Assembly (NCBI GenBank): GCA_038321575.1
Contig: JBBQFD010000001.1
Location: 2,982 to 66,981, forward strand
DNA: 64,000 nt
Direction of reading: 5' to 3'
From: Bacilli bacterium
GTDB lineage: Bacteria; Bacillota_I; Bacilli_A; RF39; UBA660
The notes beneath the pieces are model-generated. The model was not told the DNA's origin, did not search any database, and was given only the letters and a program-made list of their open reading frames with translations. The position numbers and the translations under genes were made by a program. Below, piece by piece: positions 29,585-53,058 of the stretch. Within the stretch, counting starts at the first letter, position 1. Each line of letters begins with the position of its first letter.

Positions 29585-29588
29585 AAAC

Positions 29589-29665: not shown

Positions 29666-29686
29666 ACATATATATTTATCATTAAA

Positions 29687-29762: not shown

Positions 29763-29770
29763 ATAATAAA

Positions 29771-29846
29771 TGGCGGTCCCGACGAGAATCGAACTCGCGA
29801 TCTTCTGCGTGACAGGCAGACGTGATAACCGCTACACTACAGGACC
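29771..29846 (-). tRNA. tRNA-Asp (anticodon GTC)
   Basis: The reverse complement reads GGTCCTGTAGTGTAGCGGTTATCACGTCTGCCTGTCACGCAGAAGATCGCGAGTTCGATTCTCGTCGGGACCGCCA. Confidence 0.88.
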
Positions 29847-29852
29847 AAAATA

Positions 29853-29929
<77 letters not shown>

Positions 29930-29961
29930 ATATTAAATAAGGTTGGTACATAATAAATAGA

Positions 29962-30054
29962 TGGCGGAGAAAGAGGGATTCGAACCCCCGCGCCGTTTTA
30001 CCGACCTCCCGGTTTTCAAGACCGGTCCCTTCAACCAGGCTTGGGTATTTCTCC
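29962..30054 (-). tRNA. tRNA-Ser (anticodon TGA), long variable arm
   Basis: The reverse complement reads GGAGAAATACCCAAGCCTGGTTGAAGGGACCGGTCTTGAAAACCGG...GGGTTCGAATCCCTCTTTCTCCGCCA. Confidence 0.85.
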
Positions 30055-30072
30055 TTGTTAAACATATATAAA

Positions 30073-30161
30073 TGGTGCCTAAGGCCGGACTTGAACCGGC
30101 ATGAAGTATTATCCTCGCAGGATTTTAAGTCCTGTGCGTCTACCTATTCCGCCACTCAGGC
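30073..30161 (-). tRNA. tRNA-Leu (anticodon TAA), long variable arm
   Basis: The reverse complement reads GCCTGAGTGGCGGAATAGGTAGACGCACAGGACTTAAAATCCTGCG...GGTTCAAGTCCGGCCTTAGGCACCA. Confidence 0.85.
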
Positions 30162-30169
30162 AAATTATA

Positions 30170-30245
30170 TGGTGTCTCGTACAAGATTCGAACTTGTGAC
30201 CCTTTGATTAAAAGTCAAATGCTCTACCGGCTGAGCTAACGAGAC
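30170..30245 (-). tRNA. tRNA-Lys (anticodon TTT)
   Basis: The reverse complement reads GTCTCGTTAGCTCAGCCGGTAGAGCATTTGACTTTTAATCAAAGGGTCACAAGTTCGAATCTTGTACGAGACACCA. Confidence 0.88.
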
Positions 30246-30270
30246 ATATTATTATATATGATATCAAAAA

Positions 30271-30346
30271 TGGCTGCCTCGGCTAGAATCGAACTAGCGA
30301 AATGCCACAGTCAAAGTGTGGTGCCTTACCGCTTGGCTACGAGGCA
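30271..30346 (-). tRNA. tRNA-Gln (anticodon TTG)
   Basis: The reverse complement reads TGCCTCGTAGCCAAGCGGTAAGGCACCACACTTTGACTGTGGCATTTCGCTAGTTCGATTCTAGCCGAGGCAGCCA. A U1:A72 pair is present. Confidence 0.85.
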
Positions 30347-30368
30347 ATCTAACCTAGCTATAATTAAA

Positions 30369-30452
30369 TGGTGGAGGGAGATGGATTCGAACCATCGAAC
30401 CCTAAGGAGTTGATTTACAGTCAACTGCGTTTAGCCACTTCGCTACCCCTCC
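30369..30452 (-). tRNA. tRNA-Tyr (anticodon GTA), long variable arm
   Basis: The reverse complement reads GGAGGGGTAGCGAAGTGGCTAAACGCAGTTGACTGTAAATCAACTCCTTAGGGTTCGATGGTTCGAATCCATCTCCCTCCACCA. Confidence 0.85.
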
Positions 30453-30456
30453 AACA

Positions 30457-30532
30457 TGGTGCCGAAAATAGGACTTGAACCCACAACCTACTGATTACAA
30501 ATCAGTTGCTCTACCAGTTGAGCTATTTCGGC
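30457..30532 (-). tRNA. tRNA-Thr (anticodon TGT)
   Basis: The reverse complement reads GCCGAAATAGCTCAACTGGTAGAGCAACTGATTTGTAATCAGTAGGTTGTGGGTTCAAGTCCTATTTTCGGCACCA. Confidence 0.88.
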
Positions 30533-30535
30533 ATC

Positions 30536-30612
30536 TGGTGGGAGATATAGGACTCGAACCTATGACCCCCTGCTTGTAAGGCAGGTGCTCTAACCAACTG
30601 AGCTAATCTCCC
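30536..30612 (-). tRNA. tRNA-Val (anticodon TAC)
   Basis: The reverse complement reads GGGAGATTAGCTCAGTTGGTTAGAGCACCTGCCTTACAAGCAGGGGGTCATAGGTTCGAGTCCTATATCTCCCACCA. Confidence 0.88.
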
Positions 30613-34609: not shown

Positions 34610-35797
34610 CTATGATATTTGATGAGCTTTTATATATTCCTCAATATCACTTACACGATCTAATTGTTCCCATTTAACATTTAAATCATTTCTACCCATA
34701 TGACCATAACTTGCTAATTGTTGATATATTGGACTAGTTAATTCTAATGTATTAATGATATTTTGTGGTGTTGAATTCCACAAATCTTTAATTAAAGCAA
34801 TAATATAATCTTCACTATAAAAACTAGTATTAAAAGTCTCAACTAAAATTGATATAGGGTTAGCTACTCCTATTGCATATGATAATTGAATTTCTAATTT
34901 AGAAGCCACCTTTGCCGCCACTAAATTCTTCGCGATATATCTGGCATAATAAGCGGCACTGCGGTCAACTTTAGTAGCGTCTTTACCACTAAAAGCCCCA
35001 CCACCATGGCGAGAGTAACCGCCATAAGTATCAACAATAATCTTACGCCCAGTTAAGCCGCTATCACCAAGTGGACCACCAATTACAAAACGGCCCGTTG
35101 GATTAACTAAGATTTTAGTGTTATCATCGATTAAATTCTTTGGTATTATTTTTAAAATTACTTCGTTTATGATATCATTTTTAATTTGGTCTTGGGTAAT
35201 CTCTTCATCATGTTGAGTTGATACGATTATCGTATCAATTCGCCTAGGAATACCATCTTCATATTCAACTGTTACTTGGGTTTTACCATCAGGTCGAAGG
35301 TAACTTAGAATTTGATTTTTCCTAACTTCTGATAATCTTTTCGCTAACTTATGAGCAAGTGATATTGGTAATGGCATTAACTCTATTGTTTCATTACATG
35401 CATACCCAAACATCATTCCTTGATCACCTGCGCCAATTTGGTTTATAGACCCATCTAATTTAGATTCTAAGGCTTTATTAACACCAATTGCAATATCACT
35501 TGATTGTTTATCAATCTTAATGATTATTTCGCAGGTATCACCATTAAAACCATATAAATCAGTGGTATAACCAATATCCTTAATTGTTTTACGAACAATA
35601 GCTTCGATATCAACTATCTTTGATGAAGTAATCTCCCCCATTACTAAAACAAATTGTTTAGTAACTGCGACTTCACATGCGACATGGCTACTTGGATCAA
35701 CACTTAAATAAGCATCTAATACGGCATCAGATATTTGATCACATATCTTATCAGGATGCCCTTCGGTAACAGATTCGGAAGTAAATAATCTTTTCAT
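34610..35797 (-). CDS. metK: S-adenosylmethionine synthetase
   Basis: [32 protein letters not shown] and the [10 protein letters not shown]-loop are present. Confidence 0.95.
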
Positions 35798-35825: not shown

Positions 35826-35962
35826 AAAAAAACTCCGACACATAGTCCGAGTTAGATTCCTTTTTCTTATCTCTCGGCTTTAGCCGCAGGATTTAGCACC
35901 TAATTTAATAGGTTGCTGGGTTTCACAGGACCTGTATCCTCCACCGCTCTTGATAAGGTAAT
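35826..35962 (-). promoter_or_regulatory. SAM-I (S-box) riboswitch with terminator-type expression platform, leader of metK
   Basis: The minus strand reads CTTATCAAGAGCGGTGGAGGATACAGGTCCTGTGAAACCCAGCAACC...GGTGCTAAATCCTGCGGCTAAAGCCGAGAGATAAG. A hairpin (aactcggactatgtgtcggagtt) and a U7 run follow immediately before the metK RBS. Confidence 0.85.
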
Positions 35963-37332: not shown

Positions 37333-37362
37333 TAAAAAAAAGATACAATGTATCTTTTTTTA
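37333..37362. terminator. bidirectional terminator between convergent lipoprotein gene and pgi
   Basis: The hairpin aaaagataca-atg-tatctttt is flanked by A and T runs. Confidence 0.6.
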
Positions 37363-38556
37363 TTCAGCTAATATCTTCTTCATTGTTTCTTTGTATTTTT
37401 CGACTCCTTCTTGATTGAAGGCATCAACATCACTAAGATGACCATTAACCGCACAAGAAATCATAAAGAATTGAAGTATATATCCTAAATTAAAAGTTGT
37501 TAGTTTATCAACATTAATAATATTATTAATAACACCATCTTTAAAGTGGGCAATCGAGGTTGCTTTAGATGCAATATTATTTATTTCATTTAGACTCTTC
37601 TTATATTCATCAACTTCAATATCTTTTTCAACTTCTAAAATATTTATAACGGTTTCAAATAAAATATGACTACCGTCTTGAATAAATTGTCCCATCGAAT
37701 GAAGATCTCTCGTATTTATAATCCCAATTGGTAAAGTACCTTTACCATCTTTACCTAATGATTCTGAATATAATTGTTTTAACCATTCAGTAAGTGCATC
37801 TAATTTTGGTTCATAAGCAACAAAAGCTTCAACCATCGTTCCCTTTTTATAAAGAATATCTCTAATAATAGCATATTTAATTTGATTATTAACAGTCTTT
37901 TGTGATTCGATGGCACCATCTAATAACTCTTCAATATTGATACCAGCTACTGCGATTGGTAATAAACCAACCGGTGTAAAGACTGAATATCTACCACCAA
38001 TATCATTAGGAATATCAAATGTCTTATAACCTTCAGCATTTGCTTTTCCATTACCACCCGTTAAAATAATACGTTCTTTTAACTCTTCACTTGAATATTT
38101 TTCTTTCATAATATCTAAAATAAGGTCAAATACAACTCTAGTTTCAAAAGTTGTTCCTGATTTAGATATGTAATTAACAATAATGTCTTTGTTTTTAATC
38201 AATTCTTTTAATTCAATCAAATATTCACTTGATAGAGAAGTCCCCAGAAAATATATTTCTGGTTTTTTTTGTTCGTTATAGAAATATGGACTCAATGATT
38301 CAATTACTGCTAATGAACCTAAGTAAGAACCGCCAATTCCTACTACTAAAAATGCATCACAGTTGTTTTTAATCTGTAAACTAGTCTTTTTAATCTCATC
38401 AATCAGTTCTTGCTTTTTTAGATTTTTAGGATAAGCCCAACCCATCATATTTTGATGAGTTTTAAAATAATTACTTAATTCTTTGATTTTTGGATCATAG
38501 GTCGCAATCTCTTCATCAGTAATATCACTATAGGTTTTAAAATCAAAACTTATCAT
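37360..38556 (-). CDS. pgi: glucose-6-phosphate isomerase (Bacillus-type Pgi)
   Basis: VVGIGGSYLGSLA, SKSGTTFET, GGRYSVFTPVGLLPIAVAG and EWLKQLYSESLGKDGKG are present. It overlaps the giant upstream gene by 4 nt. Confidence 0.85.
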   Translation of the reverse strand: MISFDFKTYSDITDEEIATYDPKIKELSNYFKTHQNMMGWAYPKNLKKQELIDEIKKTSLQIKNNCDAFLVVGIGGSYLGSLAVIESLSPYFYNEQKKPEIYFLGTSLSSEYLIELKELIKNKDIIVNYISKSGTTFETRVVFDLILDIMKEKYSSEELKERIILTGGNGKANAEGYKTFDIPNDIGGRYSVFTPVGLLPIAVAGINIEELLDGAIESQKTVNNQIKYAIIRDILYKKGTMVEAFVAYEPKLDALTEWLKQLYSESLGKDGKGTLPIGIINTRDLHSMGQFIQDGSHILFETVINILEVEKDIEVDEYKKSLNEINNIASKATSIAHFKDGVINNIINVDKLTTFNLGYILQFFMISCAVNGHLSDVDAFNQEGVEKYKETMKKILAE

Positions 38557-41500
38557 TCTTTACCTCCCATATTTACTATTATTATATGTTTTTTCTTATC
38601 ATCAATCAAGTTTATAAGATTATCTTTAACTTTTTTTTCATCAATCATTATACTACTTACACCTTCAGATACATGGTCTTTATTATTTACTTTAATATCA
38701 TAAATAGTATTAAGATACTTATAAGTAAACTCAAAATTTAACCATGTTGAATCAATATGAGGATTGATTGTTAAAGTATTACCTGTTTTTTCTAAACCAA
38801 TAATTTTTTCGATACCTATTTTATAAGCCCAACTAGCCGAACCGGTATACCAAGTCCAACCACCGCGACCAGCGTAATTATTTTTTGAATAAATATCGGC
38901 TGCAATAACATACGGTTCAGTTTTATATTTTAAAACATCTATTGCATTAGTAGTACGATTAATTGGATTAATCATTTTTAAATAGCCGTATGCTTTATTT
39001 ATTTCACCAATCTTAATTAATGACATAATATACCATAAGGTTGCATGGGTATATTGAGCTCCATTTTCTCTAACTCCCGGTAGGTAATCACTTATATAAC
39101 CAGGGTCATTTTTTTCTTCAAAGAAAGCGGGGCTTAATAATTTAATTAAATGATTATCGTTGTCAACTAATCTATTGTCGATTTCTTTAATTAATGGTTT
39201 TATATTACGTGGATCAATAACATTGCTTAAAATACTCCATGATTGTGATAATAAATCTATTTGGCATGAAGCATTATTCTTAGAACCAAGGGTGTCACCA
39301 TTATCAAAGAAAGCTCTTAGATACCAACTACCATCCCAAGCATTAGCATTAATTGATTTTTTTAATTCAATAGCTGATTCATGACACGTTTTAATAAAAT
39401 CAACATCTTCTTTAGGGGCAATTTCTTCTATCTTATTTAAAAGATCATATAAGAAAAATCCTACCCAAACACTCTCTCCGATACCTTTATTACCAACTTT
39501 ATTCATACCATCATTCCAGTCACCACTACCCATCAAAGGTAGGCCGTTGGTCCCTAGTTGATTTAACGCTTTAGTAATTGATAATTTTAAATGATAGTAA
39601 AGTGTTTCTTGAGTTGCACTATATGAATAATTAATGCCTTTTTCGTCTTGTTGTTCACCTAAGTGTTCACCTTCAACAAAAACTACTTTTTCATCTAAAA
39701 TGGTGTAATTATTAGTTACTTTTAAATATTCATATGTTACATATAATAGCCATAAATAATCATCAGAGAACTTAGTGCGTGCCCCTAACGATAATTCTTC
39801 ATGCCACCAATGTAGAACATCTCCTTCAATGAATTGGTGTTTGGCATGTTTTAAGATTTGATCTCTGGTAAAAGTTGGATTACTATATATTAAACTCATT
39901 GAGTCTTGTAATTGATCTCTAAAACCAATTGCGCCACCAACTTGATAGAAAGCTGATTTAGCATATAATCTTGATGCATAAACTTGATATAAATACCAAC
40001 CGTTCATCATATAATCAAATGATTTATCAGGTGTCTTTATAACAATGTTTGATAGTTTTTCTTTCCAGTATTCAACTACTTCAATAAATTCATTAGCGAT
40101 AAACTCTTTAGTTTGATACTTGTTAATAATATCTTCGGTGTTATTAGCACAACCAAGCATAAATGATAATTCTTTACTTTCATCTTTAAATAGATCAATA
40201 CTAATCGAGATTGTTTTTGTTGAGACATCATTTAAATCATATTTTACAATCTTTTCGCTTGATGACATAAATACTTTTTCATTTCTAAAGACTTTATTAT
40301 AAACATTTTGCATAATCAAACTATTTTGTGTAACATCAAAATCAACTAAAATATGAGAGTTAGTTTGTTCTTCCGTTTCACCTAAAACCGGTTTAATAAC
40401 AAAGTCGATATCTAATTTAATTTTAGTACTCTTCTTATTGTTAATTTTTATGTCATAAAGTTTTAGATTATCACTTCTGGGGACAAATACTTTTATTTCC
40501 ATATCATAATCTTCAGTATTAGCAATAAAAATCGAATACCCAAATCCGTGTTTTACTAGACTTGGAATAAACTTTTGTTTATTAATATAAATAGCTTCAC
40601 TAGCAGGATCACCTACTGCATCATTGCTCCATGATGTTAATTTAAACTGACGACTATTGTATGCATAAGTAAATCCACCTAGATTGTTAGTTATAACGGT
40701 TCCGAAAGTCTCATTAGCAATTATATTTGACCATGGCGCTGGTGTATCATTATTAAAAACGTGATACTCACTACCATTTTTACTAAACCCACCATATTGA
40801 TTGTCAAAATCAATCTTTGGAGATTTAGTTTCTAACAACGTTATTAAATTAGAAGTTTTGCTTACTTCTAATTTAATTGGTTCTAAAAGATCTAAATCAA
40901 ATATTTGTTGATTTAATGACTTATGAATTGAAGCATCAAAATATATTTTAGTAATTGTTTTAAACAACACTAATTCTTCATTACTCAATTCTGATATTGT
41001 ATATACATTCCCTGGTGAGTTTTCAAAATAATTTAAATTATTAATACGATACATCAAATTATTAATGTATTTAGCAACTAATTCTTTTTTACCATCAACT
41101 TCATTATTTATAATAACCACATCTAAATAAATAGCGCGGCTCTTATAAAACTCATAAGCTTGTAAGATTTCTTTTATAAAACCTGAATCCTCAGCATTAT
41201 CAATATTAACTAAGATTAATGGTAAATCACCAGATACTCCAAACTTCCATAAATTATCTTGCGATAAATTATTAATATGTAAGATTTCATGACGTTTTAT
41301 GCTAATTGGTAGTGTTTGATAAATGTACTTAAGCATAGTGTTATATGACATTAACTCACGACCATTTAAACCAGCATAGTGATTGCGCATATTATTTAAT
41401 ATAGTTGCCATTTCAAACGCAACATCAACTATTTTCTTATTATTATAAGTGTTAACTATTTCATCAATTTGTTCTCTTGACTTGCCGAAACCAACTAATA

Positions 41501-44500
41501 AGTAAATTATCTTTTTACTATTAGCTTTAATTTTAATATTCTTACGAATACTCATGATCGGATCAATCAAGTCATCAATATCACATGACAAACGTTCACT
41601 ATTACATATTTTAAAAGGATTCGCCGTAGTATTGTTACGACCAATGAAATTAGCGCGTGATGTTTCAAATTCAAAATTGATACTATCTTCACCATCAATA
41701 AACATACGATTAACCACAAAATACTTAGTATTTTCTTTAGTGCGTGAACTTCTCTTAAAGATTAATGATGATGTTTTCTCATCTATTTCACTAGCAATTG
41801 TTAAACTGTTAAAAGCACGATGTGCAATATCTTCTTCATTACGAGCCATAATAATTTCAGAATAAGACGTTACTTCTAAATTAATATCATCATTACTAGT
41901 ATTTTCAAAAGTAATTTTACGTATTTCCGCATTATGTTCCTTGGTAACCATGATTTCCGTATTAGTAATTATATCTTCATCTTCTCTTGTATACTTGATT
42001 CGATCACTAGCAAAAACCACACGATATTTATCAGGTGCTTTCTTTGCTGGTAAATACGTATTGGTCCAAAAATTATTAGTTTTAAGATTTTTAATATATA
42101 TAAACACTCCGTAATTCTCATCCGTTACATTGCGGTAACGATTAATAAATAAATTTTTATATTTACTAAAACCTATACCGCGATCATTGATGAAAGTAGA
42201 GTAAAAACCATTAGATAAAACTCCCACACTAGGCATTGGCATAATACCAGTTTGTTCTCTAACGTCAGTATCTTGAATATCTCGTTTATAAGAATATTTC
42301 TTATAACGTTCTATTTTTAGATCAATATATGGTCTAATTTGAACTTTTTCTTTTAATAATAATTCAATTGCTTTAATGTTTTTATCAGCATGAAAATATT
42401 CTTGAATAATATTTTCGTGAAAATAATTAGCGATACTAGATAGTATCATCCCTTGATGATGTGAATAATAAGCTTTAACAACAACTTTATCTTCATTGTC
42501 ATAAGCTTCATATAAACCATATTTACCATACATATCTAATTTTTTAAGTTTCTTAATATTTTCATATACACCATTTGGATATCTACCCAAAGCCATTAAT
42601 GATCCATATGGAGCAATAACAATTAACGGGGTTTCACTATCTTGGAACTTTAAATGTGGGACCCCAAAAGCTTTATATTTATAATTTTGTGAGTCATCTA
42701 ATTCATTATAAGCTGATTCAGTTATACCCCATGGTAATTTGGGATCAGCTTCACGCATAAATTCTTTTTGAGCATAATACGCAAATAAATAAGTTTCATC
42801 TAATAAAGTGTGCTTATATGTTTTCATAAATATTAATGGCATATAATATTCAAACATTGTTCCAGTCCATGAAACAACACCTTTATATAGTTTATATTTA
42901 GTTAACGTCTTATCTAAGCAAAACCAATGTTTAAAAGGTACATCCCCTTTAGCAATAGCAATAAAACTAGAAAGGCGTGACTCTGATAAGAAATTATTAT
43001 AATGATATGGAACTAATTTACCTTCATTAATCGTATAACCAACACTAAAGACATCAAGATCATGATTATATAACTTAGAGAAATCAGTAGCAGCAATTAA
43101 TTTATTAACACGATATTCTAAAACTTTATAATGAGTTAAGTGTTCTAAGAATCCTTTTAAGACATATAACGATGAAACAAAATTACCACTATCAGCAGTT
43201 GATATAAAGAATGGTGGTATTGCTTTCATTTCATAAATATTATACCAATTATATAAATGACCATTCCATTTAGCTAAACCCTCAACACTCTTTAAAATAT
43301 TAGCTAATAAATCGATTGCGACAGTTTCGTTAATAATTTTTAATTCATAAGCTGAAATAACACTGGTTATCGATAAACCAACATTAGTTGGCGAAGTACG
43401 ATAATCTATCTTTTCTTCACGATTTGATTGAAAATTATCTGGCATCAAATAATTAAATTCTCTTGTTAAATAGTCCTCAAAGAAACTCCAAGTTCTGATA
43501 GCAATATCTCTAATTTCACCTTTAGCTTTGCCACTCAACGGTTGTGATTCATACTTAATATCAAGACTTATAAAGAACATTAAGAATGGCGCAAATATCC
43601 ATATCGAAGCCAAGAAGTATGCTACATAAATATAATCTTGTTTAAAATAGTATGCAAGCCATATTATTAATAATGTAAATAAATAATTAGCTTTAAAATT
43701 ATTAATATAAGTTAACAGATTATTTTTAGAACGCTTTTCCACTTCTTCCGAAGTAATCCAATTTAGTAAATTCTTTTTACTTATTAGCATGCGATAAACT
43801 GATTTAATAATCGCATCTAAATATAAACAAGTTTCATATGGCAATAGAGCTAAAATAATAAATGATTTTATAACTACTGCAAATATACCAGTAATTAAAT
43901 TCAAATAATACTTTAAAAATATATCATATTTTTGTTTTGAAAATATCTTAGCAAATAAATAAAAGAAGATTGGGGTCGCTATTATAATCATAACTATAAC
44001 CAAAGATATTGTTGGATTAAGTTTACTAATAGTAAATCCATATATGATTAATAACAGCAATGCTAAACTCTTTAAACTTCTAACTAAATTATCAAATATT
44101 TTCCACTTTTCAATTAAATTGATCGGATTTTTAACAACTTCGTTCTTTTTATTTCTTACTTTGTTTTTAAGCCAACTAATAATTTGCCAGTCACCTCTGG
44201 TCCAACGATGATGTCGACCAGCATCATTTAAGTATTTAGATGGGAATCCATCAAAGAATTCAACATCACTAACAAATCCACAACGTAAGTAATTTCCCTC
44301 TAACAAATCGTGGCTTAAAATAAGATTATCAGGGAAGTTATTATTGATTATTTCATCAAAAATCTCTAAATCATATATTCCTTTGCCAACAAAACTACCT
44401 TCATTAAAAACATCTTGATATAAATCAAAACTCTTGGTCGTATATATATCTAAACCTCCAAGACCTGCGAATAACTGTGTATATTGTGACTTATCAGTCG

Positions 44501-46259
44501 CTTCTAATTCAATACTAATTCGTGGTTGCATAATTGCATAACCAGCAATAACCTTCTTGCGGTCTTTTGATAAAACTGGTTTGTTCATTGGGTGAATCAT
44601 TGCCCCAATTAATTTTAAAGCAGTATTCAAAAGCAGTTTAGTATCTGCATCTAAAGTTATAACATATTTTATTTTAGTTTTAAAATCTTTAAAAGTATGA
44701 TAATTAAAATATAAATCTTGATCTTCTTTATTTAATTTGTGTAATAATAATTGATTAAAATGTAATAAAGCTCCTCTTTTTCTTTCATAACCTAAATAAG
44801 AAGCCTCACTTTCATTATAAAAGCGATTACGATACGCAAAATTAAATACCTTACTACCATATTTTTCGTTAAGTTGATTAACTTTCTTAATGCCAGCATC
44901 GATAACTATTTGATCCATAGCAACATTTTCTGTTGTCTCGCTAGTTACATCACCAAGCAAAGTAAAGTATAAATTAGTTGTACGGTTTGATAAATAATAT
45001 AACTCTAAATTATCAAACATTTGGTTAACTTTGTTAGCGCTATTTAAAATAGTTGGAATAACTACCATCGTACTATATTCAGCCGGAAAACTTTCTTCAA
45101 CTTTGATTTTAAATAGACTTTTCGTATTTACTGTTTTTAATAGTATTTGGTTTACTATATCAATAACATATCCTAATGACGGAATAAGTAAAAGCAGGAA
45201 CCCCGTTATTCCAAAAAAGTATGAACCTATAAACGACAAAATCAATGTTAATGCAAACACGGTTGTAATATACACAACAGTTCTTGTTTTATAATCTTTT
45301 TCTTCAAATAAATAAAATCCGATATGTTTTTCGTTATTGTCAGCAACTTTTACTAAGTTCTTAATGTATTGATACTCATTAATTTTATTATTTTTAACTG
45401 TTTTCTTAATTTGATTACGATATTCTGCTTTCGAACTTTCATACATCGAATCATATATATTAACTTTCTCATTAATTAATGCTTTTTCTGTATAACTAAC
45501 ACTAGAATATAGTAATTCCATCTTAACTTTAATCATTTTTTTAAGTGATTCAAACAAATTAACCATTAATAAATTCTCGTTTAATTTTTCTTCGTGTTGT
45601 TCTTTAATAATATCCTTTAATGACATACTATTTTTAATTAATAATTCATTTAATTTTTTAAAGACTGATTCTGAAATAGAATCAAGTTCACTTAATTTAT
45701 AGTTTAATTCTTCAATATAATAATGATTATCTAAAATCGAATTATTGATTTTTATATAATCATATATATTACGATTTTTCTTTTGATATTGATTTTTTTC
45801 GATTATTTTAAAAGCACGATCAATACTATGTGTTTCATCAAGTTTGTTGTTTAATTTCATTGCTAGTTTCTTAAGCTCATTAATTATGATAATTCTGAGA
45901 ACAATATTTATATAATCAAATTCATCATAAGAAAAATAATCTTTATTTGCCTCTTGGTAATTATTAATTTGTTCAAATACTATCGCCAAACTAAATTTGA
46001 AATTTTGTTGCACTAAAAAACTATAGAGTAATTCCCTTATTTGTTTCTTTCGACTATTTTTAATTTTTAAGATACTTTTCTTTTTTAAACTACCTTCAAT
46101 TTGAATTTGTTGTTCACTTATTAAATAGTAGTTATCAATAATCCATTCATTAATACTACCAACGCTTTGGTTTTGCTTTGTATATGAGACTAATTTTTTA
46201 TAATACACCGTTATATAATGAATATCCAAATTTAATTTTTTTAATACGATATTATTCAT
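38553..46259 (-). CDS. giant membrane glycosyltransferase-GH94 glycoside phosphorylase fusion, cyclic beta-1,2-glucan synthase (Cgs/NdvB/ChvB)-like, 2568 aa
   Basis: The N-terminal third has TM clusters flanking a GT-A-type region (LDADT DxD motif, HRWTRGDWQ). The C-terminal ~1000 aa has GH94 hallmarks (MGSGDWNDGMN, GGWTWYTGSASWAY). A middle alpha-helical region links them. Confidence 0.75.
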   Translation of the reverse strand: MNNIVLKKLNLDIHYITVYYKKLVSYTKQNQSVGSINEWIIDNYYLISEQQIQIEGSLKKKSILKIKNSRKKQIRELLYSFLVQQNFKFSLAIVFEQINNYQEANKDYFSYDEFDYINIVLRIIIINELKKLAMKLNNKLDETHSIDRAFKIIEKNQYQKKNRNIYDYIKINNSILDNHYYIEELNYKLSELDSISESVFKKLNELLIKNSMSLKDIIKEQHEEKLNENLLMVNLFESLKKMIKVKMELLYSSVSYTEKALINEKVNIYDSMYESSKAEYRNQIKKTVKNNKINEYQYIKNLVKVADNNEKHIGFYLFEEKDYKTRTVVYITTVFALTLILSFIGSYFFGITGFLLLLIPSLGYVIDIVNQILLKTVNTKSLFKIKVEESFPAEYSTMVVIPTILNSANKVNQMFDNLELYYLSNRTTNLYFTLLGDVTSETTENVAMDQIVIDAGIKKVNQLNEKYGSKVFNFAYRNRFYNESEASYLGYERKRGALLHFNQLLLHKLNKEDQDLYFNYHTFKDFKTKIKYVITLDADTKLLLNTALKLIGAMIHPMNKPVLSKDRKKVIAGYAIMQPRISIELEATDKSQYTQLFAGLGGLDIYTTKSFDLYQDVFNEGSFVGKGIYDLEIFDEIINNNFPDNLILSHDLLEGNYLRCGFVSDVEFFDGFPSKYLNDAGRHHRWTRGDWQIISWLKNKVRNKKNEVVKNPINLIEKWKIFDNLVRSLKSLALLLLIIYGFTISKLNPTISLVIVMIIIATPIFFYLFAKIFSKQKYDIFLKYYLNLITGIFAVVIKSFIILALLPYETCLYLDAIIKSVYRMLISKKNLLNWITSEEVEKRSKNNLLTYINNFKANYLFTLLIIWLAYYFKQDYIYVAYFLASIWIFAPFLMFFISLDIKYESQPLSGKAKGEIRDIAIRTWSFFEDYLTREFNYLMPDNFQSNREEKIDYRTSPTNVGLSITSVISAYELKIINETVAIDLLANILKSVEGLAKWNGHLYNWYNIYEMKAIPPFFISTADSGNFVSSLYVLKGFLEHLTHYKVLEYRVNKLIAATDFSKLYNHDLDVFSVGYTINEGKLVPYHYNNFLSESRLSSFIAIAKGDVPFKHWFCLDKTLTKYKLYKGVVSWTGTMFEYYMPLIFMKTYKHTLLDETYLFAYYAQKEFMREADPKLPWGITESAYNELDDSQNYKYKAFGVPHLKFQDSETPLIVIAPYGSLMALGRYPNGVYENIKKLKKLDMYGKYGLYEAYDNEDKVVVKAYYSHHQGMILSSIANYFHENIIQEYFHADKNIKAIELLLKEKVQIRPYIDLKIERYKKYSYKRDIQDTDVREQTGIMPMPSVGVLSNGFYSTFINDRGIGFSKYKNLFINRYRNVTDENYGVFIYIKNLKTNNFWTNTYLPAKKAPDKYRVVFASDRIKYTREDEDIITNTEIMVTKEHNAEIRKITFENTSNDDINLEVTSYSEIIMARNEEDIAHRAFNSLTIASEIDEKTSSLIFKRSSRTKENTKYFVVNRMFIDGEDSINFEFETSRANFIGRNNTTANPFKICNSERLSCDIDDLIDPIMSIRKNIKIKANSKKIIYLLVGFGKSREQIDEIVNTYNNKKIVDVAFEMATILNNMRNHYAGLNGRELMSYNTMLKYIYQTLPISIKRHEILHINNLSQDNLWKFGVSGDLPLILVNIDNAEDSGFIKEILQAYEFYKSRAIYLDVVIINNEVDGKKELVAKYINNLMYRINNLNYFENSPGNVYTISELSNEELVLFKTITKIYFDASIHKSLNQQIFDLDLLEPIKLEVSKTSNLITLLETKSPKIDFDNQYGGFSKNGSEYHVFNNDTPAPWSNIIANETFGTVITNNLGGFTYAYNSRQFKLTSWSNDAVGDPASEAIYINKQKFIPSLVKHGFGYSIFIANTEDYDMEIKVFVPRSDNLKLYDIKINNKKSTKIKLDIDFVIKPVLGETEEQTNSHILVDFDVTQNSLIMQNVYNKVFRNEKVFMSSSEKIVKYDLNDVSTKTISISIDLFKDESKELSFMLGCANNTEDIINKYQTKEFIANEFIEVVEYWKEKLSNIVIKTPDKSFDYMMNGWYLYQVYASRLYAKSAFYQVGGAIGFRDQLQDSMSLIYSNPTFTRDQILKHAKHQFIEGDVLHWWHEELSLGARTKFSDDYLWLLYVTYEYLKVTNNYTILDEKVVFVEGEHLGEQQDEKGINYSYSATQETLYYHLKLSITKALNQLGTNGLPLMGSGDWNDGMNKVGNKGIGESVWVGFFLYDLLNKIEEIAPKEDVDFIKTCHESAIELKKSINANAWDGSWYLRAFFDNGDTLGSKNNASCQIDLLSQSWSILSNVIDPRNIKPLIKEIDNRLVDNDNHLIKLLSPAFFEEKNDPGYISDYLPGVRENGAQYTHATLWYIMSLIKIGEINKAYGYLKMINPINRTTNAIDVLKYKTEPYVIAADIYSKNNYAGRGGWTWYTGSASWAYKIGIEKIIGLEKTGNTLTINPHIDSTWLNFEFTYKYLNTIYDIKVNNKDHVSEGVSSIMIDEKKVKDNLINLIDDKKKHIIIVNMGGKE

Positions 46260-46360
46260 CTTAAGCCTCCTATATTAACTATATTAATTATAACATATAA
46301 CACCAATTAACAAATATATATTTATATTCGATAATTTGTTATAATATAATTGGTGATAAA

Positions 46361-47722
46361 ATGAAAGAATTTAATGAGAATATTTTTAGAGCTTATGATA
46401 TAAGGGGTATTTACGGAAGTGAACTTACGGATGATTTGGCCTACAACCTTGGATTAGCATTTGGTACCAAATTAAAATTAGAGCACAAGACAAGAACTGT
46501 TGTTGGGTATGATAACCGCACTTCTTCAGTGTCGCTTTTTAATGCCCTCACTAAAGGTATTAAAGAAACAGGCATTGATGTTATTAATATTGGATTAGTC
46601 ACTACTCCGATGTATTATTTTGCTTGGCAACTATTTCAAGTTGATTCTGGCATTATGATTACGGCTTCACACAATCCTAAAGAACACAATGGTTTTAAAA
46701 TATCATTTAATGGCACCTTTAATGCCTATGGTGAGATGATTCAAGAATTCAAGGAATTCATCAAAAAAGGAAAATTTATAAGCGGTCAAGGACTTACTAT
46801 TAATGAAGATATAAAAGACCGTTATATTGACTTTGTTTTAAAATCAATTAAATTAGGTGAAAGACGACTAAAAATTGTAGTTGATTCAGGTAATGGTACT
46901 TCAGCCATTATTATAAAAGATGTTTTAAATAAATTAAATATTGATTATATCCCTCTTTATACAGAATCAGATCCTAATTTTCCTAATCATCATCCTGATC
47001 CTAGTGTTCCAAAAAACATGGAAATGCTTAGTGAAGTTGTTAGAAGTAAACAAGCTGATGTTGGATTTGCATATGATGGTGATGCTGATCGTATGGGTTT
47101 AGTTGATGAATCCGGCAACATGATTAGTAATGATCACTTTATGATTATGATTGTGAGAGATATTATTAATAACTTAAGCGATAAACGTATTTTGTTTGAT
47201 GTTAAATGTTCAAAGAGTTTAGAAGATGAAATTATTAAATTAGGTGGAACCCCAGTTATTTCAAGGACTGGTAATTCATATCTTAGAGCAAGAATCGTTG
47301 ATGATAATATCCCTTTTGGCGGTGAGTTATCAGGACATATTTTCTTTAATGATAAATTCCCTGGTTATGATGATGGTATTTATGCATCACTTAGAATGAT
47401 GGAAATATTAAGCAATACTAATAAAAAGGTTAGTGAATTATTAAGTGGTATCACTAAATATTACTCAACACCTGAATTAAAGATGAATGTTAGCGATGAT
47501 AAAAAATTCGCTTTAATTGAACAAGTAAAAACTTACTGCCAATCTAAAAATTATAAATTTTTAGATATTGATGGTTGTAAAGTCATATTCGATGATGGCT
47601 TTGTTCTTGTTAGAGCATCAAATACCGGTCCTCAAATAACCTTAAGGTTTGAAGCGACAACTGAATTAAGACTTAATGAAATGAAAACTGAATTTGAAAA
47701 TGTTATTAATAAAATGCAATAA
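46361..47722 (+). CDS. phosphoglucomutase/phosphomannomutase family protein
   Basis: The active-site serine loop (TASHNPKEHNGFK), the metal loop (DGDADR) and GELSGH are present. It is divergent from the giant synthase gene. Confidence 0.88.
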   Translation: MKEFNENIFRAYDIRGIYGSELTDDLAYNLGLAFGTKLKLEHKTRTVVGYDNRTSSVSLFNALTKGIKETGIDVINIGLVTTPMYYFAWQLFQVDSGIMITASHNPKEHNGFKISFNGTFNAYGEMIQEFKEFIKKGKFISGQGLTINEDIKDRYIDFVLKSIKLGERRLKIVVDSGNGTSAIIIKDVLNKLNIDYIPLYTESDPNFPNHHPDPSVPKNMEMLSEVVRSKQADVGFAYDGDADRMGLVDESGNMISNDHFMIMIVRDIINNLSDKRILFDVKCSKSLEDEIIKLGGTPVISRTGNSYLRARIVDDNIPFGGELSGHIFFNDKFPGYDDGIYASLRMMEILSNTNKKVSELLSGITKYYSTPELKMNVSDDKKFALIEQVKTYCQSKNYKFLDIDGCKVIFDDGFVLVRASNTGPQITLRFEATTELRLNEMKTEFENVINKMQ

Positions 47723-47723: not shown

Positions 47724-47754
47724 AGAAAAATCTAGGTTATCCTAGATTTTTTTA
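47724..47754. terminator. bidirectional terminator between convergent PGM and GLUG-pilin genes
   Basis: The hairpin aaaatctagg-ttat-cctagatttt is followed by T-rich sequence. Confidence 0.6.
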
Positions 47755-50700
47755 ATTTGCTTCAACTGAAATACTTGTACCACTCAGTTTCCAAATAAAC
47801 TCTAAAGTAGTTGTATCTGTAAAATTAAATGAAGCATAATTCGTATAAATAGTTGTTTCTAATAACGCTTCTGCTGTAGAATTAATTCCATTTGGATCAT
47901 ACGTGTTAGCACTAATTACTGTACTACCGTTAATTGTTGATGTGGCTAAAGCAACCCCTTCTGATAACGGATTGTTGTCCTTAGCACTAATACGGTAAAC
48001 ATTTGCAGTTCCTACTATTGCACCACCGCGATATAATGATCCGCGTATTGACCCATTTGTATATCCCCAGCTGCTTGGCCAGCCACTATCGTAGGTATAT
48101 CCAGCAATTCCACCAACATAATTTGTTCCTGTTACATTTCCTTCTGACATAACATCAGAAGCATTACCATAATTATAACCAATTACTAATCCTGTATATG
48201 TAGTTCCCACTATGTTTCCAGATACATATATATCAGAAACATTGGTGCTACTTCCTTGATTATATCCAACTACTCCTCCAGTATGTGTCCCTGTTGCTGT
48301 TACAGCCAAGGTTTTTATATTCATTCCTTTTACTGAACCAGATCCGGTATTATTTCCGACTATTCCTCCGGTATAGTTACTACCATTTACAACAGTATTT
48401 GTAACATTGATTTTACTTATTATTCCTATATTTACACCGGCAATAGCACCAGTATAATTATCACCATTAATATTTAATCCTGTTAAATTAAAATTAGTAA
48501 CAGTCCCACTATTATATCCGAATATTCCGGTATTATAGGCACCGCTCAAGACAATATTATTTAAAGTCTTCCCATTACCATTAAAATTACCAGTAAATCT
48601 ATTGTTATCGCTTGATAATGTATAAAAGTATTTATCACTAAAATTGATATTATTCATTAATTTATAATAAGATCCTGGTGATAAACTAATTTGATTAAAT
48701 TCTTCGTAATTAGTTATCAAATACGGATCATCACTAGCGCCAGTACCGCTCATCGTAATAGCGGTATTGGCTATTTTAGGAATTATAACACCGCTGCTAT
48801 TGTAATCAAAATAATAACCATCAGCATCATTATCACCACCAATTATAGTATCTAGAGTTATTTCGTAAGTATTAATACTTGATATTCTAGAAGGACTAAT
48901 ATCAGAACCGTCAACTCCATAAAAACTAGTACCATTGATAGCTACACCATTAACTAAAATATCACTAGCCGACATAGCTTTATTAATTGTTCCGGCATTA
49001 CCAGTTGGTGATATTTTATTATAATTTGACGTCGCTGTAATATTGCCTTTTTTATAAATAACACCATTTATATAGCCATTTATATAACCATATGATTCTG
49101 GCCAACCACTATTATGATTATATCCAGCAATTCCTCCAACATAATTTATGCCAGTTACATTACCTTCAGTTGTAACACTCTTAATATTTCCTTTGTTATA
49201 ACCGGTAACTAATCCAACAAAATTAACCCCTGTTACGTTTCCTTTGTAAGAAACTGTTGATACATATGCATTGAGACCTCCGTCTAATAATCCAGCAATT
49301 CCACCAGTATTATCTCCAGTTCCCGTAATAGTTGCGTCAATTACATATGCACCGATAATTTTACCGCCACTGTTGCATCCTACTATTCCGCCGGTATTAG
49401 AAACGCCATTTACATTAAGATTTGTAACATTAATTTTACTAATTGTTCCTGCATTTAAGCCTGCCATTGCACCAGTACAATTTCCTCCACTAATGGTTAA
49501 TCCTGTTAAATTAACACTGGTAATAGTTCCACCATTGTATCCAAATATTCCAGTATTATAAGCACCATTTAAAACAATATTACTTAATGTCTTTCCGTTG
49601 CCATTAAAATTACCAGTGAATCTGTTATTATCACTAGATAATGTATAGAAATACTTGTTACTGAAACTAATGCTATTCATTAATTTATAATAAGACCCTA
49701 GCGAGAAACTAATTTGATTAAGTTCTTCATAATTAGTTATCAAATATGGATCATCACTAGCACCAGTACCGCTCATCGTAATAGCGGTATTAGCTATTTT
49801 AGGGATTATAACACCGCTGCTATTGTAATCAAAATAATAGCCATCAGCGTCATTGTCACCACCAATTATGGTATCTAGAGTTATTTCATAAGTATTAATA
49901 TCTGTTATTTTAGAAGAACTAATATCAGAGCCATCAGCTCCATAAAAACTAGTACCATTGATAGCTACACCATTAACTAAAATATCACTAGCCGACATAG
50001 CTTTACTAATTGTTCCGGCATTATCAGTTGGTGTTATTTTGTTATAAGTTGATTCGGCTGTAATATTTCCTTTTTTATAAAAAACACCAGCTATATAACC
50101 ATTCATATAACCATATGATTCTGGCCAACCACTATTATAAGTGTATCCAGCAATTCCTCCAATATGATTTTGACCACTTATGTTGCCTTCAGTGGTAACA
50201 TTTTTGATACTACCTCTATTATAACCAGTAACTAATCCAAGATAACACCATCCTGTTACATCACCTTTATAAGAAGTATTTGAAATATAAGCGTTAGAAC
50301 CTCCTATAAGAAATCCAACAAGTCCGCCAACATAGTTGGTACCGATAACATTTGTATCAATTACATATGCACCGATAATTTTACCACCTTCATTATATCC
50401 GGCAATTGACCCAGTATAAGTATTACCAGTAATTAACGAATTACTTAAACTCAAATCTTTAATCGTTCCGCTGTTGTATGCGAATAAACCCACATAATTT
50501 TGCGTTGGTCTATTAATGTAAAGATTATTAATAAATTTATTGTTGCCATTAAAAGTTCCAGAAAAAATGTAAGTATTATTATTTATCGGCAAGAACCCTA
50601 GGCCCGTTGTAAGTTCGGTTTTCAATGATTCAATGATAGTGTTACCATTTATATCACCAAAAGCAATTGTTGAACTATTAATATACGATTTATCATCTTG

Positions 50701-51339
50701 ATAATTTAAATTATAATTTAAATAAATTGTTTTGCCATTAAAATTTTCAGTCTTAGCGAGATTCGAAAAAGCCACTAAATCTTCAATGCTGTTTATATTA
50801 CATGTTGTATTTCCAGCATAGTTTTCAGTTGCTCCTGATCCGCATATAACTCCAGGATTAGAATCAACTACTTGTGAATATATAACGGTATCGCTATGAA
50901 TACCCATAATATCTGCTAAAAAGGTTGTCTCATCAAGAATTGATTCAACAATAGTTGGTTCTACATCAGTGTAATCTTTTACAACAGCAATTTGTAGGTC
51001 ATTGTTCCAAATACCCAAATAAACAACTCCTTCGTTATTTACTTCAACTTTACCACTATCAGGGAGTTTACCTTTAATATTTAATTTAATTTCACTTGTT
51101 TGAACACCATCTTCAAAAGTTACAACAAAACTAGAAACTGTCGTTTCTGTACTATTTAATTCGGCATACTTCATTTCAGCAGCTGAAACAATATTATCAG
51201 CACTTCTTAAAAAAACATCTGCTCTTGCTTTTTGAATGACACCAAAGATGGTTGGTGTTGCTATTAATGCAATAACCGACAAAATCACAATTACTGCTAA
51301 TAACTCGATTAAAGTAAATCCTCTTTTAATATTTTTCAA
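47752..51339 (-). CDS. giant class-III-signal-peptide (type IV pilin/ComGC-like N-terminus) protein with GLUG-motif repeats, 1195 aa, TTG start
   Basis: The N-terminus MKNIKRGFTLIELLAVIVILSVIALIATP is a prepilin peptidase site (G|FTLIE). The body has more than 20 GLUG motifs (NYVGGLVGF, NHIGGIAGY, NTGGIVGCN, NFVGLVTGYN) and an internal ~340-aa duplication. The start codon is TTG, preceded by AAGGGGG. Confidence 0.8.
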   Translation of the reverse strand: MKNIKRGFTLIELLAVIVILSVIALIATPTIFGVIQKARADVFLRSADNIVSAAEMKYAELNSTETTVSSFVVTFEDGVQTSEIKLNIKGKLPDSGKVEVNNEGVVYLGIWNNDLQIAVVKDYTDVEPTIVESILDETTFLADIMGIHSDTVIYSQVVDSNPGVICGSGATENYAGNTTCNINSIEDLVAFSNLAKTENFNGKTIYLNYNLNYQDDKSYINSSTIAFGDINGNTIIESLKTELTTGLGFLPINNNTYIFSGTFNGNNKFINNLYINRPTQNYVGLFAYNSGTIKDLSLSNSLITGNTYTGSIAGYNEGGKIIGAYVIDTNVIGTNYVGGLVGFLIGGSNAYISNTSYKGDVTGWCYLGLVTGYNRGSIKNVTTEGNISGQNHIGGIAGYTYNSGWPESYGYMNGYIAGVFYKKGNITAESTYNKITPTDNAGTISKAMSASDILVNGVAINGTSFYGADGSDISSSKITDINTYEITLDTIIGGDNDADGYYFDYNSSGVIIPKIANTAITMSGTGASDDPYLITNYEELNQISFSLGSYYKLMNSISFSNKYFYTLSSDNNRFTGNFNGNGKTLSNIVLNGAYNTGIFGYNGGTITSVNLTGLTISGGNCTGAMAGLNAGTISKINVTNLNVNGVSNTGGIVGCNSGGKIIGAYVIDATITGTGDNTGGIAGLLDGGLNAYVSTVSYKGNVTGVNFVGLVTGYNKGNIKSVTTEGNVTGINYVGGIAGYNHNSGWPESYGYINGYINGVIYKKGNITATSNYNKISPTGNAGTINKAMSASDILVNGVAINGTSFYGVDGSDISPSRISSINTYEITLDTIIGGDNDADGYYFDYNSSGVIIPKIANTAITMSGTGASDDPYLITNYEEFNQISLSPGSYYKLMNNINFSDKYFYTLSSDNNRFTGNFNGNGKTLNNIVLSGAYNTGIFGYNSGTVTNFNLTGLNINGDNYTGAIAGVNIGIISKINVTNTVVNGSNYTGGIVGNNTGSGSVKGMNIKTLAVTATGTHTGGVVGYNQGSSTNVSDIYVSGNIVGTTYTGLVIGYNYGNASDVMSEGNVTGTNYVGGIAGYTYDSGWPSSWGYTNGSIRGSLYRGGAIVGTANVYRISAKDNNPLSEGVALATSTINGSTVISANTYDPNGINSTAEALLETTIYTNYASFNFTDTTTLEFIWKLSGTSISVEAN
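48355..50394. repeat. ~1.02 kb near-identical tandem duplication (2 copies) inside the GLUG-pilin gene
   Basis: Long DNA stretches in 48550..48960 and 49570..49980 are near-identical at a 1020-nt offset. Protein residues about 316-655 and 656-995 are collinear with few substitutions. Confidence 0.8.
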
Positions 51340-52278: not shown

Positions 52279-53058
52279 TTATGGTTGCATTACTCCGAAG
52301 AATACTAACCATGCCAATACTGATTTAGCAACTAAGCTAAGAATAATATAAGCACGTTCGCCATATAGATAATCTGCCCATTTGCCTTTTTCTTTATATT
52401 GTAAGATCATATTAATTGGGAATAGATTAAAGAATACTAAATATGATCCAAATACCGCATAAACAAACCATGGTATTTGAGTAGGATCAGAATTACCAAA
52501 GGCATACATAATAACTACTATCCAAGGAATTAAGCCGGCGATTGATCCAAATATAAATGGTAACCAATCAATTTTCTTGTGATTTTGATTCATTTTTTCC
52601 ATTAATAAACCAAATAGATTCATGGTTGCATTTAAACCAAAGATCAACATTAATGACCCAATGTCTTTAACGCCGAATAATACAGCAATTAAGACAATCA
52701 TTAGTGATGAGCTAAGAGCATATTCATACCATCTAAACATATTCATATTATTACTTATTTGTTTAATGTATCCCTTATTAAATCTAGGTGATGCTACTAT
52801 AAAGTGAAACATCGCTGATAAGAATAGAAATACTGATACTAATATCCCAAATGGTAAAGTAAACAATACCTTTTGAACATTTACTAAATGCATTGTTGCT
52901 TTATCAAAAGTTAAAAAGTTTGAATATATATCTGGTCTAAAATTAGCCACCTTTGCCACATTTAACGCTACATATAGCATAAATGCTCCTTGAATAAAGT
53001 GGAAAAATCCCATAAATAAATTAAATCTTGTTAGGGCCTTAAATTTGTTTTCTAACAT
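52279..53058 (-). CDS. heliorhodopsin
   Basis: Seven TM helices are present. The 259-aa protein has FRWYEYALSSSLMIVLIA (TM3, Glu counterion) and GERAYIILSLVAKSVLAW (TM7, Schiff-base Lys), the hallmark blocks of heliorhodopsins. Confidence 0.85.
   Translation of the reverse strand: MLENKFKALTRFNLFMGFFHFIQGAFMLYVALNVAKVANFRPDIYSNFLTFDKATMHLVNVQKVLFTLPFGILVSVFLFLSAMFHFIVASPRFNKGYIKQISNNMNMFRWYEYALSSSLMIVLIAVLFGVKDIGSLMLIFGLNATMNLFGLLMEKMNQNHKKIDWLPFIFGSIAGLIPWIVVIMYAFGNSDPTQIPWFVYAVFGSYLVFFNLFPINMILQYKEKGKWADYLYGERAYIILSLVAKSVLAWLVFFGVMQP

Follow-up and report, generated by a model that had tools for sequence, protein, structure and literature searches.

A compact cyclic β-1,2-glucan synthase-family gene adjoining pgi in a low-GC genome of the Bacilli

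Cyclic β-1,2-glucans are known to act as osmoprotectants in the periplasm and to take part in the interactions of Brucella, Agrobacterium, and rhizobia with their hosts. What purpose would the gene for a synthase of such rings serve in a Gram-positive-type cell? This question is raised by a 64,000-nt stretch of a Bacilli genome (GenBank assembly GCA_038321575.1, contig JBBQFD010000001.1, positions 2,982 to 66,981), hereafter the window, in whose numbering all coordinates are given and in which minus-strand genes read from right to left. Here a large open reading frame (ORF) of 2568 codons, termed cgs (38553..46259, minus strand), is followed by pgi, which encodes a 398-aa glucose-6-phosphate isomerase (PGI; 37360..38556, minus strand), and is flanked upstream by a divergent gene for a 453-aa α-D-phosphohexomutase of the phosphoglucomutase/phosphomannomutase (PGM/PMM) family (46361..47722, plus strand). 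A first-pass annotation, made from the nucleotide letters, had proposed, for a low-GC monoderm, a synthase of the Cgs/NdvB/ChvB type in which a glycosyltransferase and a middle region precede a C-terminal GH94 domain, and the coordinates, strands, and lengths that it gave for the three ORFs agree exactly with the ORF list. Taken as one reading, it is probable that the large protein is a Cgs-type synthase acting like the Agrobacterium tumefaciens enzyme (AtCgs), with PGI and the mutase tying it to hexose-phosphate metabolism.

The proposed family assignment is borne out by collinear homology to AtCgs over the full length of the protein and by conservation of the catalytic residues. In a phmmer search of the Protein Data Bank (PDB), four collinear stretches over residues 29–2529 match the cryo-EM structures of AtCgs (8rf0/8rf9) with E = 0, and a family profile built from an alignment of 20 relatives, which are 46–61% identical to the query, matches the AtCgs chain at 1882 bits in two stretches (profile positions 8–1034 and 1043–2525), the first running unbroken along AtCgs chain residues 43–1097 (637 bits). 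Pfam recognizes a Glycoamylase/SGL-like domain at residues 1090–1291 (E 2e-23), the GH94 supersandwich domain PF06165 at 1341–1590 (E 3e-84), and the GH94 catalytic domain PF17167 at 2064–2488 (E 2e-105); no NCBIfam model matches the protein. The order of domains is the one common to AtCgs and the Brucella and Sinorhizobium enzymes, i.e., an N-terminal domain (NTD), a first membrane segment (two transmembrane, TM, helices in AtCgs), a GT84 glycosyltransferase, a second membrane segment (four TM helices in AtCgs), a cyclization domain, and a GH94 region (Sedzicki et al., 2024, PMC10901819).

Read from the amino terminus, and with every coordinate on the minus strand, the NTD occupies residues 1–~325 (45285..46259; residues 29–306 match AtCgs 82–357 in phmmer, within one continuous profile alignment). 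A first hydrophobic cluster, detected in a Kyte–Doolittle scan at residues ~326–374 (45138..45284), aligns to the AtCgs segment that follows the NTD and corresponds to TM1–2, and the GT84 domain follows at residues ~375–725 (44085..45137) by alignment to AtCgs. A second hydrophobic cluster at residues ~726–901 (43557..44084), seen by hydropathy and in a gap-poor alignment to AtCgs 783–981, corresponds to TM3–6 with an intervening amphipathic stretch. The compact GH189-type cyclization domain, residues 905–1330 (42270..43547), is delimited by a phmmer match to the Thermoanaerobacter italicus domain described below, an AlphaFold2 (AF2) model, Foldseek comparison, and residue mapping; the GH94 phosphorylase region (GP), residues 1331–2568 (38556..42269), is delimited by the two Pfam domains, the AtCgs alignment, and motif spacing relative to the GH94 phosphorylase LpSOGP. 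The two hydrophobic clusters are collinear with the two TM groups of AtCgs (two plus four helices), the hydropathy scan itself not resolving helix number. The NTD had at first been described as a ~330-aa N-terminal extension, a description that has to be abandoned: the segment aligns to the conserved Cgs NTD, is ~87 aa shorter than in Agrobacterium, and has as its counterpart in AtCgs a side scaffold (Sedzicki et al., 2024, PMC10901819). Its richness in Lys and Asn (14% and 11%, vs 9% and 8% overall) can be put down to the AT-rich genome. At the other end of the protein, profile positions 1043–2525 span 1554 AtCgs residues, a deficit of only 71, so that the 166-aa Rossmann-fold-like subdomain of GH94 (AtCgs 1847–2012) cannot be wholly missing.

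The residues tested in two structural papers (PMC10901819, PMC10834661) were transferred via the printed alignments and confirmed in the translated sequence, and all of the mapped catalytic residues, primer tyrosine included, are invariant in the 20-relative alignment. Within GT84 these are D437 (AtCgs D527, UDP binding), D537/D539 (D624/D626, the DxD motif), D651 (D739, the catalytic base), R685–W686 (R773–W, the RW motif), and Y606, which lies in GGLDIYTT and corresponds to the glucan-primer tyrosine Y694 of AtCgs (GIDPYVF) in the IF1-homology loop. The cyclization domain keeps the pocket acid D1023 (AtCgs D1104), the acid/base E1093 (AtCgs E1300, TiCGS E1356), E1137 (TiCGS E1400, pKa tuning), the nucleophile E1181 (TiCGS E1442), and the pair H1267/H1268 (TiCGS H1536/H1537). 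In GH94, D2115 stands for AtCgs D2393, an active-site Asp whose replacement (D2393A) defines the inactive GP construct, and D2250 for the catalytic acid D2528. The DxD, RW, and GDWND motifs picked out in the first-pass annotation are all present in the translated sequence, the last at residues 2246–2250, and by alignment the glycosyltransferase belongs to no other family, nor are the GH94 Asp and phosphate-binding residues missing.

The GH94 region can also be compared with the stand-alone 1,2-β-oligoglucan phosphorylases (SOGPs) of Listeria innocua and Lachnoclostridium phytofermentans, which act on β-1,2-glucan and come from Gram-positive bacteria. In the latter enzyme, LpSOGP, R630/D631, W758/D760, E917, and Y922/H924 bind glucose-1-phosphate (PMC5309861). 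By motif and spacing, the PDB searches with the query having returned no direct alignment to LpSOGP, these residues are matched by R2114/D2115, W2248/D2250, E2398, and Y2403/H2405, and S2474 can be matched in the same manner; R2114, W2248, E2398, Y2403, H2405, and S2474 are invariant in the 20 relatives. The likeness extends to the catalytic acid and to the residues of the −1 subsite and phosphate site, whereas the SOGPs are soluble, catabolic proteins (~1100 aa) whose genes belong to sugar-uptake clusters and the GH94 region here forms the C-terminal end of a synthase anchored in the membrane.

The large ORF is a genuine gene and no chance reading frame, and its ATG is preceded at 6 nt by a GGAGG of its own. 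One might suppose from the missing linked accessory genes that cgs is a decaying or non-catalytic relic, or a scaffold. This is exceedingly improbable, as the 7.7-kb ORF is unbroken and starts behind a good ribosome-binding site, full-length relatives (2505–2574 aa) number in the hundreds, and the catalytic residues are invariant in three separate active sites.

In size, the protein departs from its proteobacterial counterpart: the AtCgs chain as deposited has 2818 residues, 250 more than the query. Block arithmetic on the phmmer alignment divides this difference into −87 residues before the first TM helices, +6 in GT84 and the membrane region, −126 at a single site of the cyclization domain, −72 over the GH94 region with its linker, and +29 in the C-terminal tail, such that a lost four-helix insert makes up about half of it. 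What the first-pass annotation had left as a "middle region" is indeed there and can be named more specifically: it is a cyclization domain of the GH189 type that retains the catalytic glutamates but not this insert. Query residues ~1033–1048 stand in place of AtCgs 1114–1255 and of TiCGS chain residues ~195–308 (the 126-residue gap, a motif of ~120 aa and four helices). The closest solved relative of the domain is the cyclization domain of T. italicus, TiCGS Cy (8WY1), the founder of GH189 and, like the query, of Bacillota origin (Tanaka et al., 2024, PMC10834661); phmmer aligns it at E 3e-104 in two blocks that leave chain 195–308 unmatched. TiCGS Cy and the query share the nucleophile, the acid/base, the pKa-tuning Glu, and the His-His pair, and they differ in that TiCGS retains a long α5 and the extra helices between α4 and α5, which are absent here. 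The domain measures 423–434 aa in 19 of the 20 aligned relatives. In Foldseek, an AF2 model of residues 905–1330 scores TMq 0.82 (relative to the query) and TMt 0.62 (relative to the larger target) against 8wy1 and ~0.70 both ways, at 12–18% identity, against insert-free β-1,2-glucanases of the SGL clan. With members of that clan (GH144 CpSGL, GH162 TfSGL, and Group 1 EeSGL1, 8XUJ), the query has in common the (α/α)6 barrel and the compact size, and it is collinear with EeSGL1 (E 3e-10); they differ from it as inverting hydrolases that lack the nucleophile arrangement of GH189.

The insert has been regarded as a family hallmark. The extra helices between α4 and α5, together with the long α5, have been called "conserved only within GH189" and used to separate GH189 from the neighboring glucanase group (PMC12102758), and the Nakajima group has termed the same additional helices "unique to CGSs." In AtCgs, the four-helix element protrudes outward and mediates back-to-back dimers, and it does not line the pocket (PMC10901819); given this outward orientation and the intact pocket residues, the compact domain is expected to retain catalysis. 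A profile of the domain was further searched against 1.84 billion representative proteins, of which 2355 clusters carry it at E ≤ 1e-30. When the query is added to the 150 best clusters, full coverage of the domain is seen in 145, and these divide into 70 compact (392–457 aa) and 75 expanded (470–623 aa) members, with median full-length proteins of 2546 and 2820 aa, respectively; the split sits exactly at profile position ~138–140. That the compact form is unique to the clade of the query can be rejected, as nearly half of the full-coverage top clusters are compact, one of them derived from a metagenome-assembled genome (MAG) of Oscillospiraceae. Insert-free GH189 is thus a large and previously unremarked subgroup, published descriptions of the family mentioning the expanded class only.

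The two neighboring genes encode recognizable enzymes of hexose-phosphate metabolism. The 398-aa protein carries the Pfam PGI domain, matches Geobacillus PGI (1b0z) at E 2e-89, and has intact GGRYS, ESLGK, LHS, and FNQEGVEKYK motifs, which we take, in line with the PROSITE PGI signatures, to supply the catalytic Glu, His, and Arg and the C-terminal Lys; the NCBIfam model PRK14097 gives 387.9 bits, short of its cut-off (443) owing to a protein length smaller by ~45 aa. By its sequence, it is a compact PGI of the Bacillus type. The mutase contains all four PGM_PMM Pfam domains and all of its active-site loops, for phosphoserine, metal, sugar, and phosphate (TASHNP with S103, DGDADR, GELSGH, and RASNT), and its divergent position 5′ of cgs is as initially proposed. 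So is the 4-nt overlap between cgs and pgi, where stop and start share the letters ATGA, and a GGAGG located within the final codons of cgs precedes the pgi ATG at 6 nt. Between cgs and the mutase gene lies an AT-rich intergenic region of 101 bp (46260..46360), presumed from its sequence to hold the promoters of both; a promoter consensus scan found 74 sites vs 88 expected in shuffles and is uninformative in such AT-rich DNA, and an Rfam scan revealed no riboswitch or other element upstream of cgs, the window yielding only tRNAs and one S-adenosylmethionine (SAM) riboswitch before metK. A bidirectional terminator-like hairpin, with 13 pairs in its stem and a T-run behind it on each strand, lies 3′ of the mutase gene (47724..47753).

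To what extent this arrangement is conserved was surveyed by searching 19 proteins of the window against the best 80 of 566 cgs loci. In the 68 loci informative for pgi (at least 1.3 kb of flank), pgi lies downstream of cgs on the same strand in 63 and directly adjacent in 46, and, by a crude start-codon call, its start overlaps the cgs stop or lies within 30 nt of it in 45 of 65 loci, which indicates co-transcription and probably coupled translation. The nearest relative (57% identical) has the same mutase–cgs–pgi order and even the same 4-nt overlap. The linkage of Pgi and mutase to the synthase that was claimed beforehand accordingly holds in part: for pgi it is general, while for the mutase it is confined to the nearest sub-clade. 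Other recurrent neighbors of cgs (Ddl, a Mur ligase, PAP2, Cof-type HAD, and GH3) reflect sub-clade synteny only, and unsupervised clustering of the flanking ORFs of the 80 loci brought out no conserved galU, exporter, SOGP-type phosphorylase, or glucanase. In a gut and rumen sub-clade (e.g., L074 9268..11736, L060 9836..12414, and L007 19192..21782), the conserved genes after pgi encode a PAP2 membrane phosphatase, in 16 loci, and a HAD phosphatase of the Cof type, in 19, and a secreted GH3 enzyme is encoded ~6 kb downstream in 8 loci; in the window, no PAP2, HAD phosphatase, or GH3 gene follows pgi.

From these observations we infer an active synthase with a ring as its product, for which the following sequence of events may be proposed by analogy with AtCgs. 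The membrane-anchored protein would operate at the cytoplasmic face, where GT84 would glucosylate its own Tyr606 from UDP-glucose and then extend the primer processively with β-1,2 linkages. GH94, using phosphate, would trim over-long chains and thereby free glucose-1-phosphate, and GH189, with E1181 as nucleophile and E1093 as acid/base, would close the chain by intramolecular transglycosylation to a ring of ~17–25 glucoses, released on the cytoplasmic side. PGI and the mutase could serve supply, carrying fructose-6-phosphate via glucose-6-phosphate to glucose-1-phosphate, from which a galU encoded at another place in the genome would lead to UDP-glucose, or recycling, returning the glucose-1-phosphate trimmed off by GH94, or both. 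Precedents exist for the central steps: purified AtCgs alone converts UDP-glucose to cyclic glucan (PMC10901819), and the isolated TiCGS cyclization domain forms rings unaided (PMC10834661).

Several observations nonetheless weigh against the proposal that the locus encodes an AtCgs-like synthase coupled to hexose-phosphate metabolism. The four-helix hallmark of GH189 is absent from the query domain by alignment, domain length, and Foldseek, and ring size, oligomeric state, or cyclization efficiency could differ as a result; the AF2 model of the domain is itself of moderate quality (mean predicted local distance difference test score 72, predicted template-modeling score 0.81, and low confidence at ~residues 181–303 of the segment). 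The mutase falls below every NCBIfam equivalog cut-off (PgmG, its best model, 428.9 vs 600; archaeal GlmM, 357 vs 439; bacterial GlmM, 215 vs 448), so the phosphate sugar on which it acts (that of glucose, mannose, or glucosamine) is not assignable, and it is linked to cgs in only 9 of the 80 loci: the 6 closest relatives have it upstream and divergent, the other 3 downstream. PGI belongs to central glycolysis, its gene is probably single-copy in genomes of ~1.3 Mb (the chromosome of one relative measures 1,309,958 bp), and the pgi beside cgs may be no more than the housekeeping copy. Among the window ORFs that were scanned (100 aa or longer, small ORFs nested in larger genes not included), no galU or other NTP_transferase gene was seen. 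The window likewise contains no Cgt/ChvA/NdvA-like exporter and no gene for succinyl or phosphoglycerol modification of glucans, and neither is conserved beside cgs in the 80 related loci. In AtCgs terms, the enzyme keeps the UDP-binding Asp, the catalytic base, the RW motif, the primer Tyr, the cyclization acids, and the GH94 Asp, whereas its setting differs, with a walled monoderm as the probable host, pgi in the operon, and no linked exporter or modifier; of the proteobacterial system of Cgs, Cgt/ChvA/NdvA, and Cgm, it is the exporter and modifier part that goes unmatched.

With respect to the enzyme, the main rival explanation is a non-classical product (linear glucan or rings of another size) or a cytoplasmic store-and-release system in which GH94 would mobilize glucose-1-phosphate into glycolysis via the mutase and PGI. 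An altered product would accord with the loss of the insert across the clade, with the shortening of AtCgs products by phosphate (PMC10901819), and with the finding that substrate length decides between linear and cyclic products in TiCGS (PMC10834661), but the AtCgs insert points outward to dimer contacts and not into the pocket, whose catalytic residues are all invariant here. Storage, like an altered product, would be in keeping with the lack of a linked exporter, and the tight linkage of pgi, joined by the mutase in the nearest clade, would suit it equally well, both enzymes being reversible and as fit for glucose-1-phosphate catabolism as for its supply; against this, the GH94 catalytic Asp of AtCgs is dispensable in vivo (PMC10901819), so trimming is not the main activity of that enzyme. 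On balance, we judge this explanation to be unlikely.

For the locus as opposed to the enzyme, the main rival is inherited synteny, in which a housekeeping pgi and a mutase gene would sit beside cgs by gene order passed down among related small genomes, with no functional unit implied. In favor of it, besides the central role of PGI, are the unrelated and variable small genes that separate cgs from pgi in 13 of the 65 loci with pgi, the company that pgi keeps in the gut relatives (PAP2 and HAD phosphatases, not sugar-nucleotide genes), the scarcity of mutase linkage, and the fact that galU is linked to cgs nowhere among the loci surveyed. Inherited order sits less easily with a cgs–pgi adjacency that persists down to 44–47% Cgs identity while all other neighbors change, or with the overlaps and short gaps at most of the junctions. 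It has a substantial chance of being correct, if somewhat short of an even one, and an AtCgs-like synthase tied to hexose phosphates remains the reading that we favor.

Elsewhere in the window, the genes bear chiefly on the type of host and on the search for an exporter. An ABC_membrane plus ABC_tran half-transporter pair of 610 and 731 aa (435..4462, minus strand) has a MarR gene upstream, the group spanning 435..4904 (minus strand). Its best solved relatives are the heterodimeric exporter TM287/288 and ABCB1, no Cgt appearing among the 60 best of 273 matches; in view of these multidrug-type relatives, the MarR neighbor, the distance of 34 kb, and the lack of conservation near cgs, its candidacy as the missing ChvA/Cgt exporter was rejected, and it looks more like a general exporter of drugs or lipids. 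The statement in the first-pass annotation that the window holds no galU, ChvA-type exporter, or modifier gene therefore stands for the genes that it named, with the amendment that an ABC exporter pair does exist.

The prediction of a low-GC monoderm is supported by a GC content of 26–33% across the whole window and by genes for the cell wall, for an LtaS-like protein, and for a heliorhodopsin, together with a riboswitch of the S-box class. MraY, a MurF-like Mur ligase, and an LtaS-like membrane protein of the sulfatase family are encoded at 9086..11560 and 21533..23509 (both minus strand), and in the nearest relative a class A penicillin-binding protein (PBP), DivIVA, and RecU are found beside the mutase–cgs–pgi trio. 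A wall-less, Mollicutes-like host was considered and rejected, given MraY, the Mur ligase, and the LtaS-like protein in the window and Ddl, a Mur ligase, and a class A PBP in relatives, the "Tenericutes/Mycoplasma" labels of some of these notwithstanding. The gene content fits a walled monoderm of the Bacillota without a periplasm, one that makes peptidoglycan and probably lipoteichoic acid. The heliorhodopsin (259 aa, 52279..53058, minus strand; PF18761, E 1e-98) suggests a light-exposed habitat and is in keeping with a monoderm host, heliorhodopsins having been reported absent from diderms. The SAM (S-box) riboswitch (35864..35959, minus strand; 75 bits) lies directly upstream of the S-adenosylmethionine synthetase gene metK (34610..35797, minus strand).

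Further features of the window include a tight cluster of 13 tRNA genes (29508..30612, minus strand; Pro, Arg, Phe, Asp, Met, Ser, Leu, Lys, Gln, Tyr, Thr, Val, and others) and single tRNA genes at 289..374 and 26325..26401. A GGDEF-EAL protein for turnover of cyclic di-GMP (c-di-GMP) is encoded at 18057..19250 (minus strand); as Cgs showed neither PilZ nor any other element that would bind c-di-GMP, a connection with the glucan synthase is not implied. An Imm5-like putative immunity protein (55239..55730, minus strand; PF21805, E 1e-33) has no obvious adjacent toxin gene among the scanned ORFs. Converging on the mutase gene, and sharing the bidirectional hairpin terminator with it, is the gene for a 1195-aa protein (47752..51339, minus strand) whose sole recognizable feature is a prepilin-type N-terminal cleavage/methylation motif at residues 5–28; in the nearest relative (L081 5080..8252), N_methyl and Fib_succ_major proteins are encoded on the equivalent side of the mutase gene.

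How widespread such genes are, and how much of this was already known, can be gauged from a scan of one genome per species, which returned at least 566 loci with a close Cgs relative. Nearly all of the best 80 are labeled as MAGs of uncultured Bacilli, Tenericutes, Mollicutes, or Erysipelotrichia from gut, rumen, and saline lakes, at 43–60% identity; a minority are labeled Bacteroidales/Muribaculaceae, which may reflect errors of binning or naming. A 100% identical copy of the 2568-aa protein exists in NCBI-derived data, the Joint Genome Institute already annotates such proteins as "cyclic beta-1,2-glucan synthetase," GT84/GH94 fusions in Clostridia figure in CAZy-based inventories, and the TiCGS cyclization domain from Thermoanaerobacter has been characterized (PMC10834661). 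At the level of genes, the notion that these synthases are known mainly from α-proteobacteria does not survive this distribution. The large protein is, as far as its sequence tells, a member of a known enzyme family that is annotated automatically in public data; in the searchable literature, no report was found of cyclic β-1,2-glucan production by a Gram-positive-type cell.

The present findings thus extend a well-described enzyme family and do not overturn its current understanding, to which they make two modest additions: a widespread insert-free subgroup of GH189 and a cgs–pgi operon conserved in uncultured Bacilli. Together with its hundreds of relatives, the locus suggests that the capacity for β-1,2-glucan is widespread in uncultured gut and environmental Bacilli, where a trimmed-down enzyme would be co-expressed with a central glycolytic gene. 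A bolder proposal, which we regard as speculative and rather doubtful, is that a compact Cgs, without the dimerization helices and hard-wired to pgi, is among the core traits of some Clostridia and of a very large radiation of Bacilli with small genomes, uncultured lineages of gut, rumen, and soda lakes, and that cyclic β-1,2-glucan serves a non-periplasmic purpose there, whether as an osmolyte of the cytoplasm or wall zone, as a carbon buffer cycling via glucose-1-phosphate, or as a host-directed glycan secreted by a non-Cgt route. If the enzyme is active, it would give structural and synthetic biology a Cgs of naturally smaller size to work with and would imply that the four-helix insert is not required for GH189 chemistry; it would likewise raise the question of how a cell without a periplasm uses such rings.

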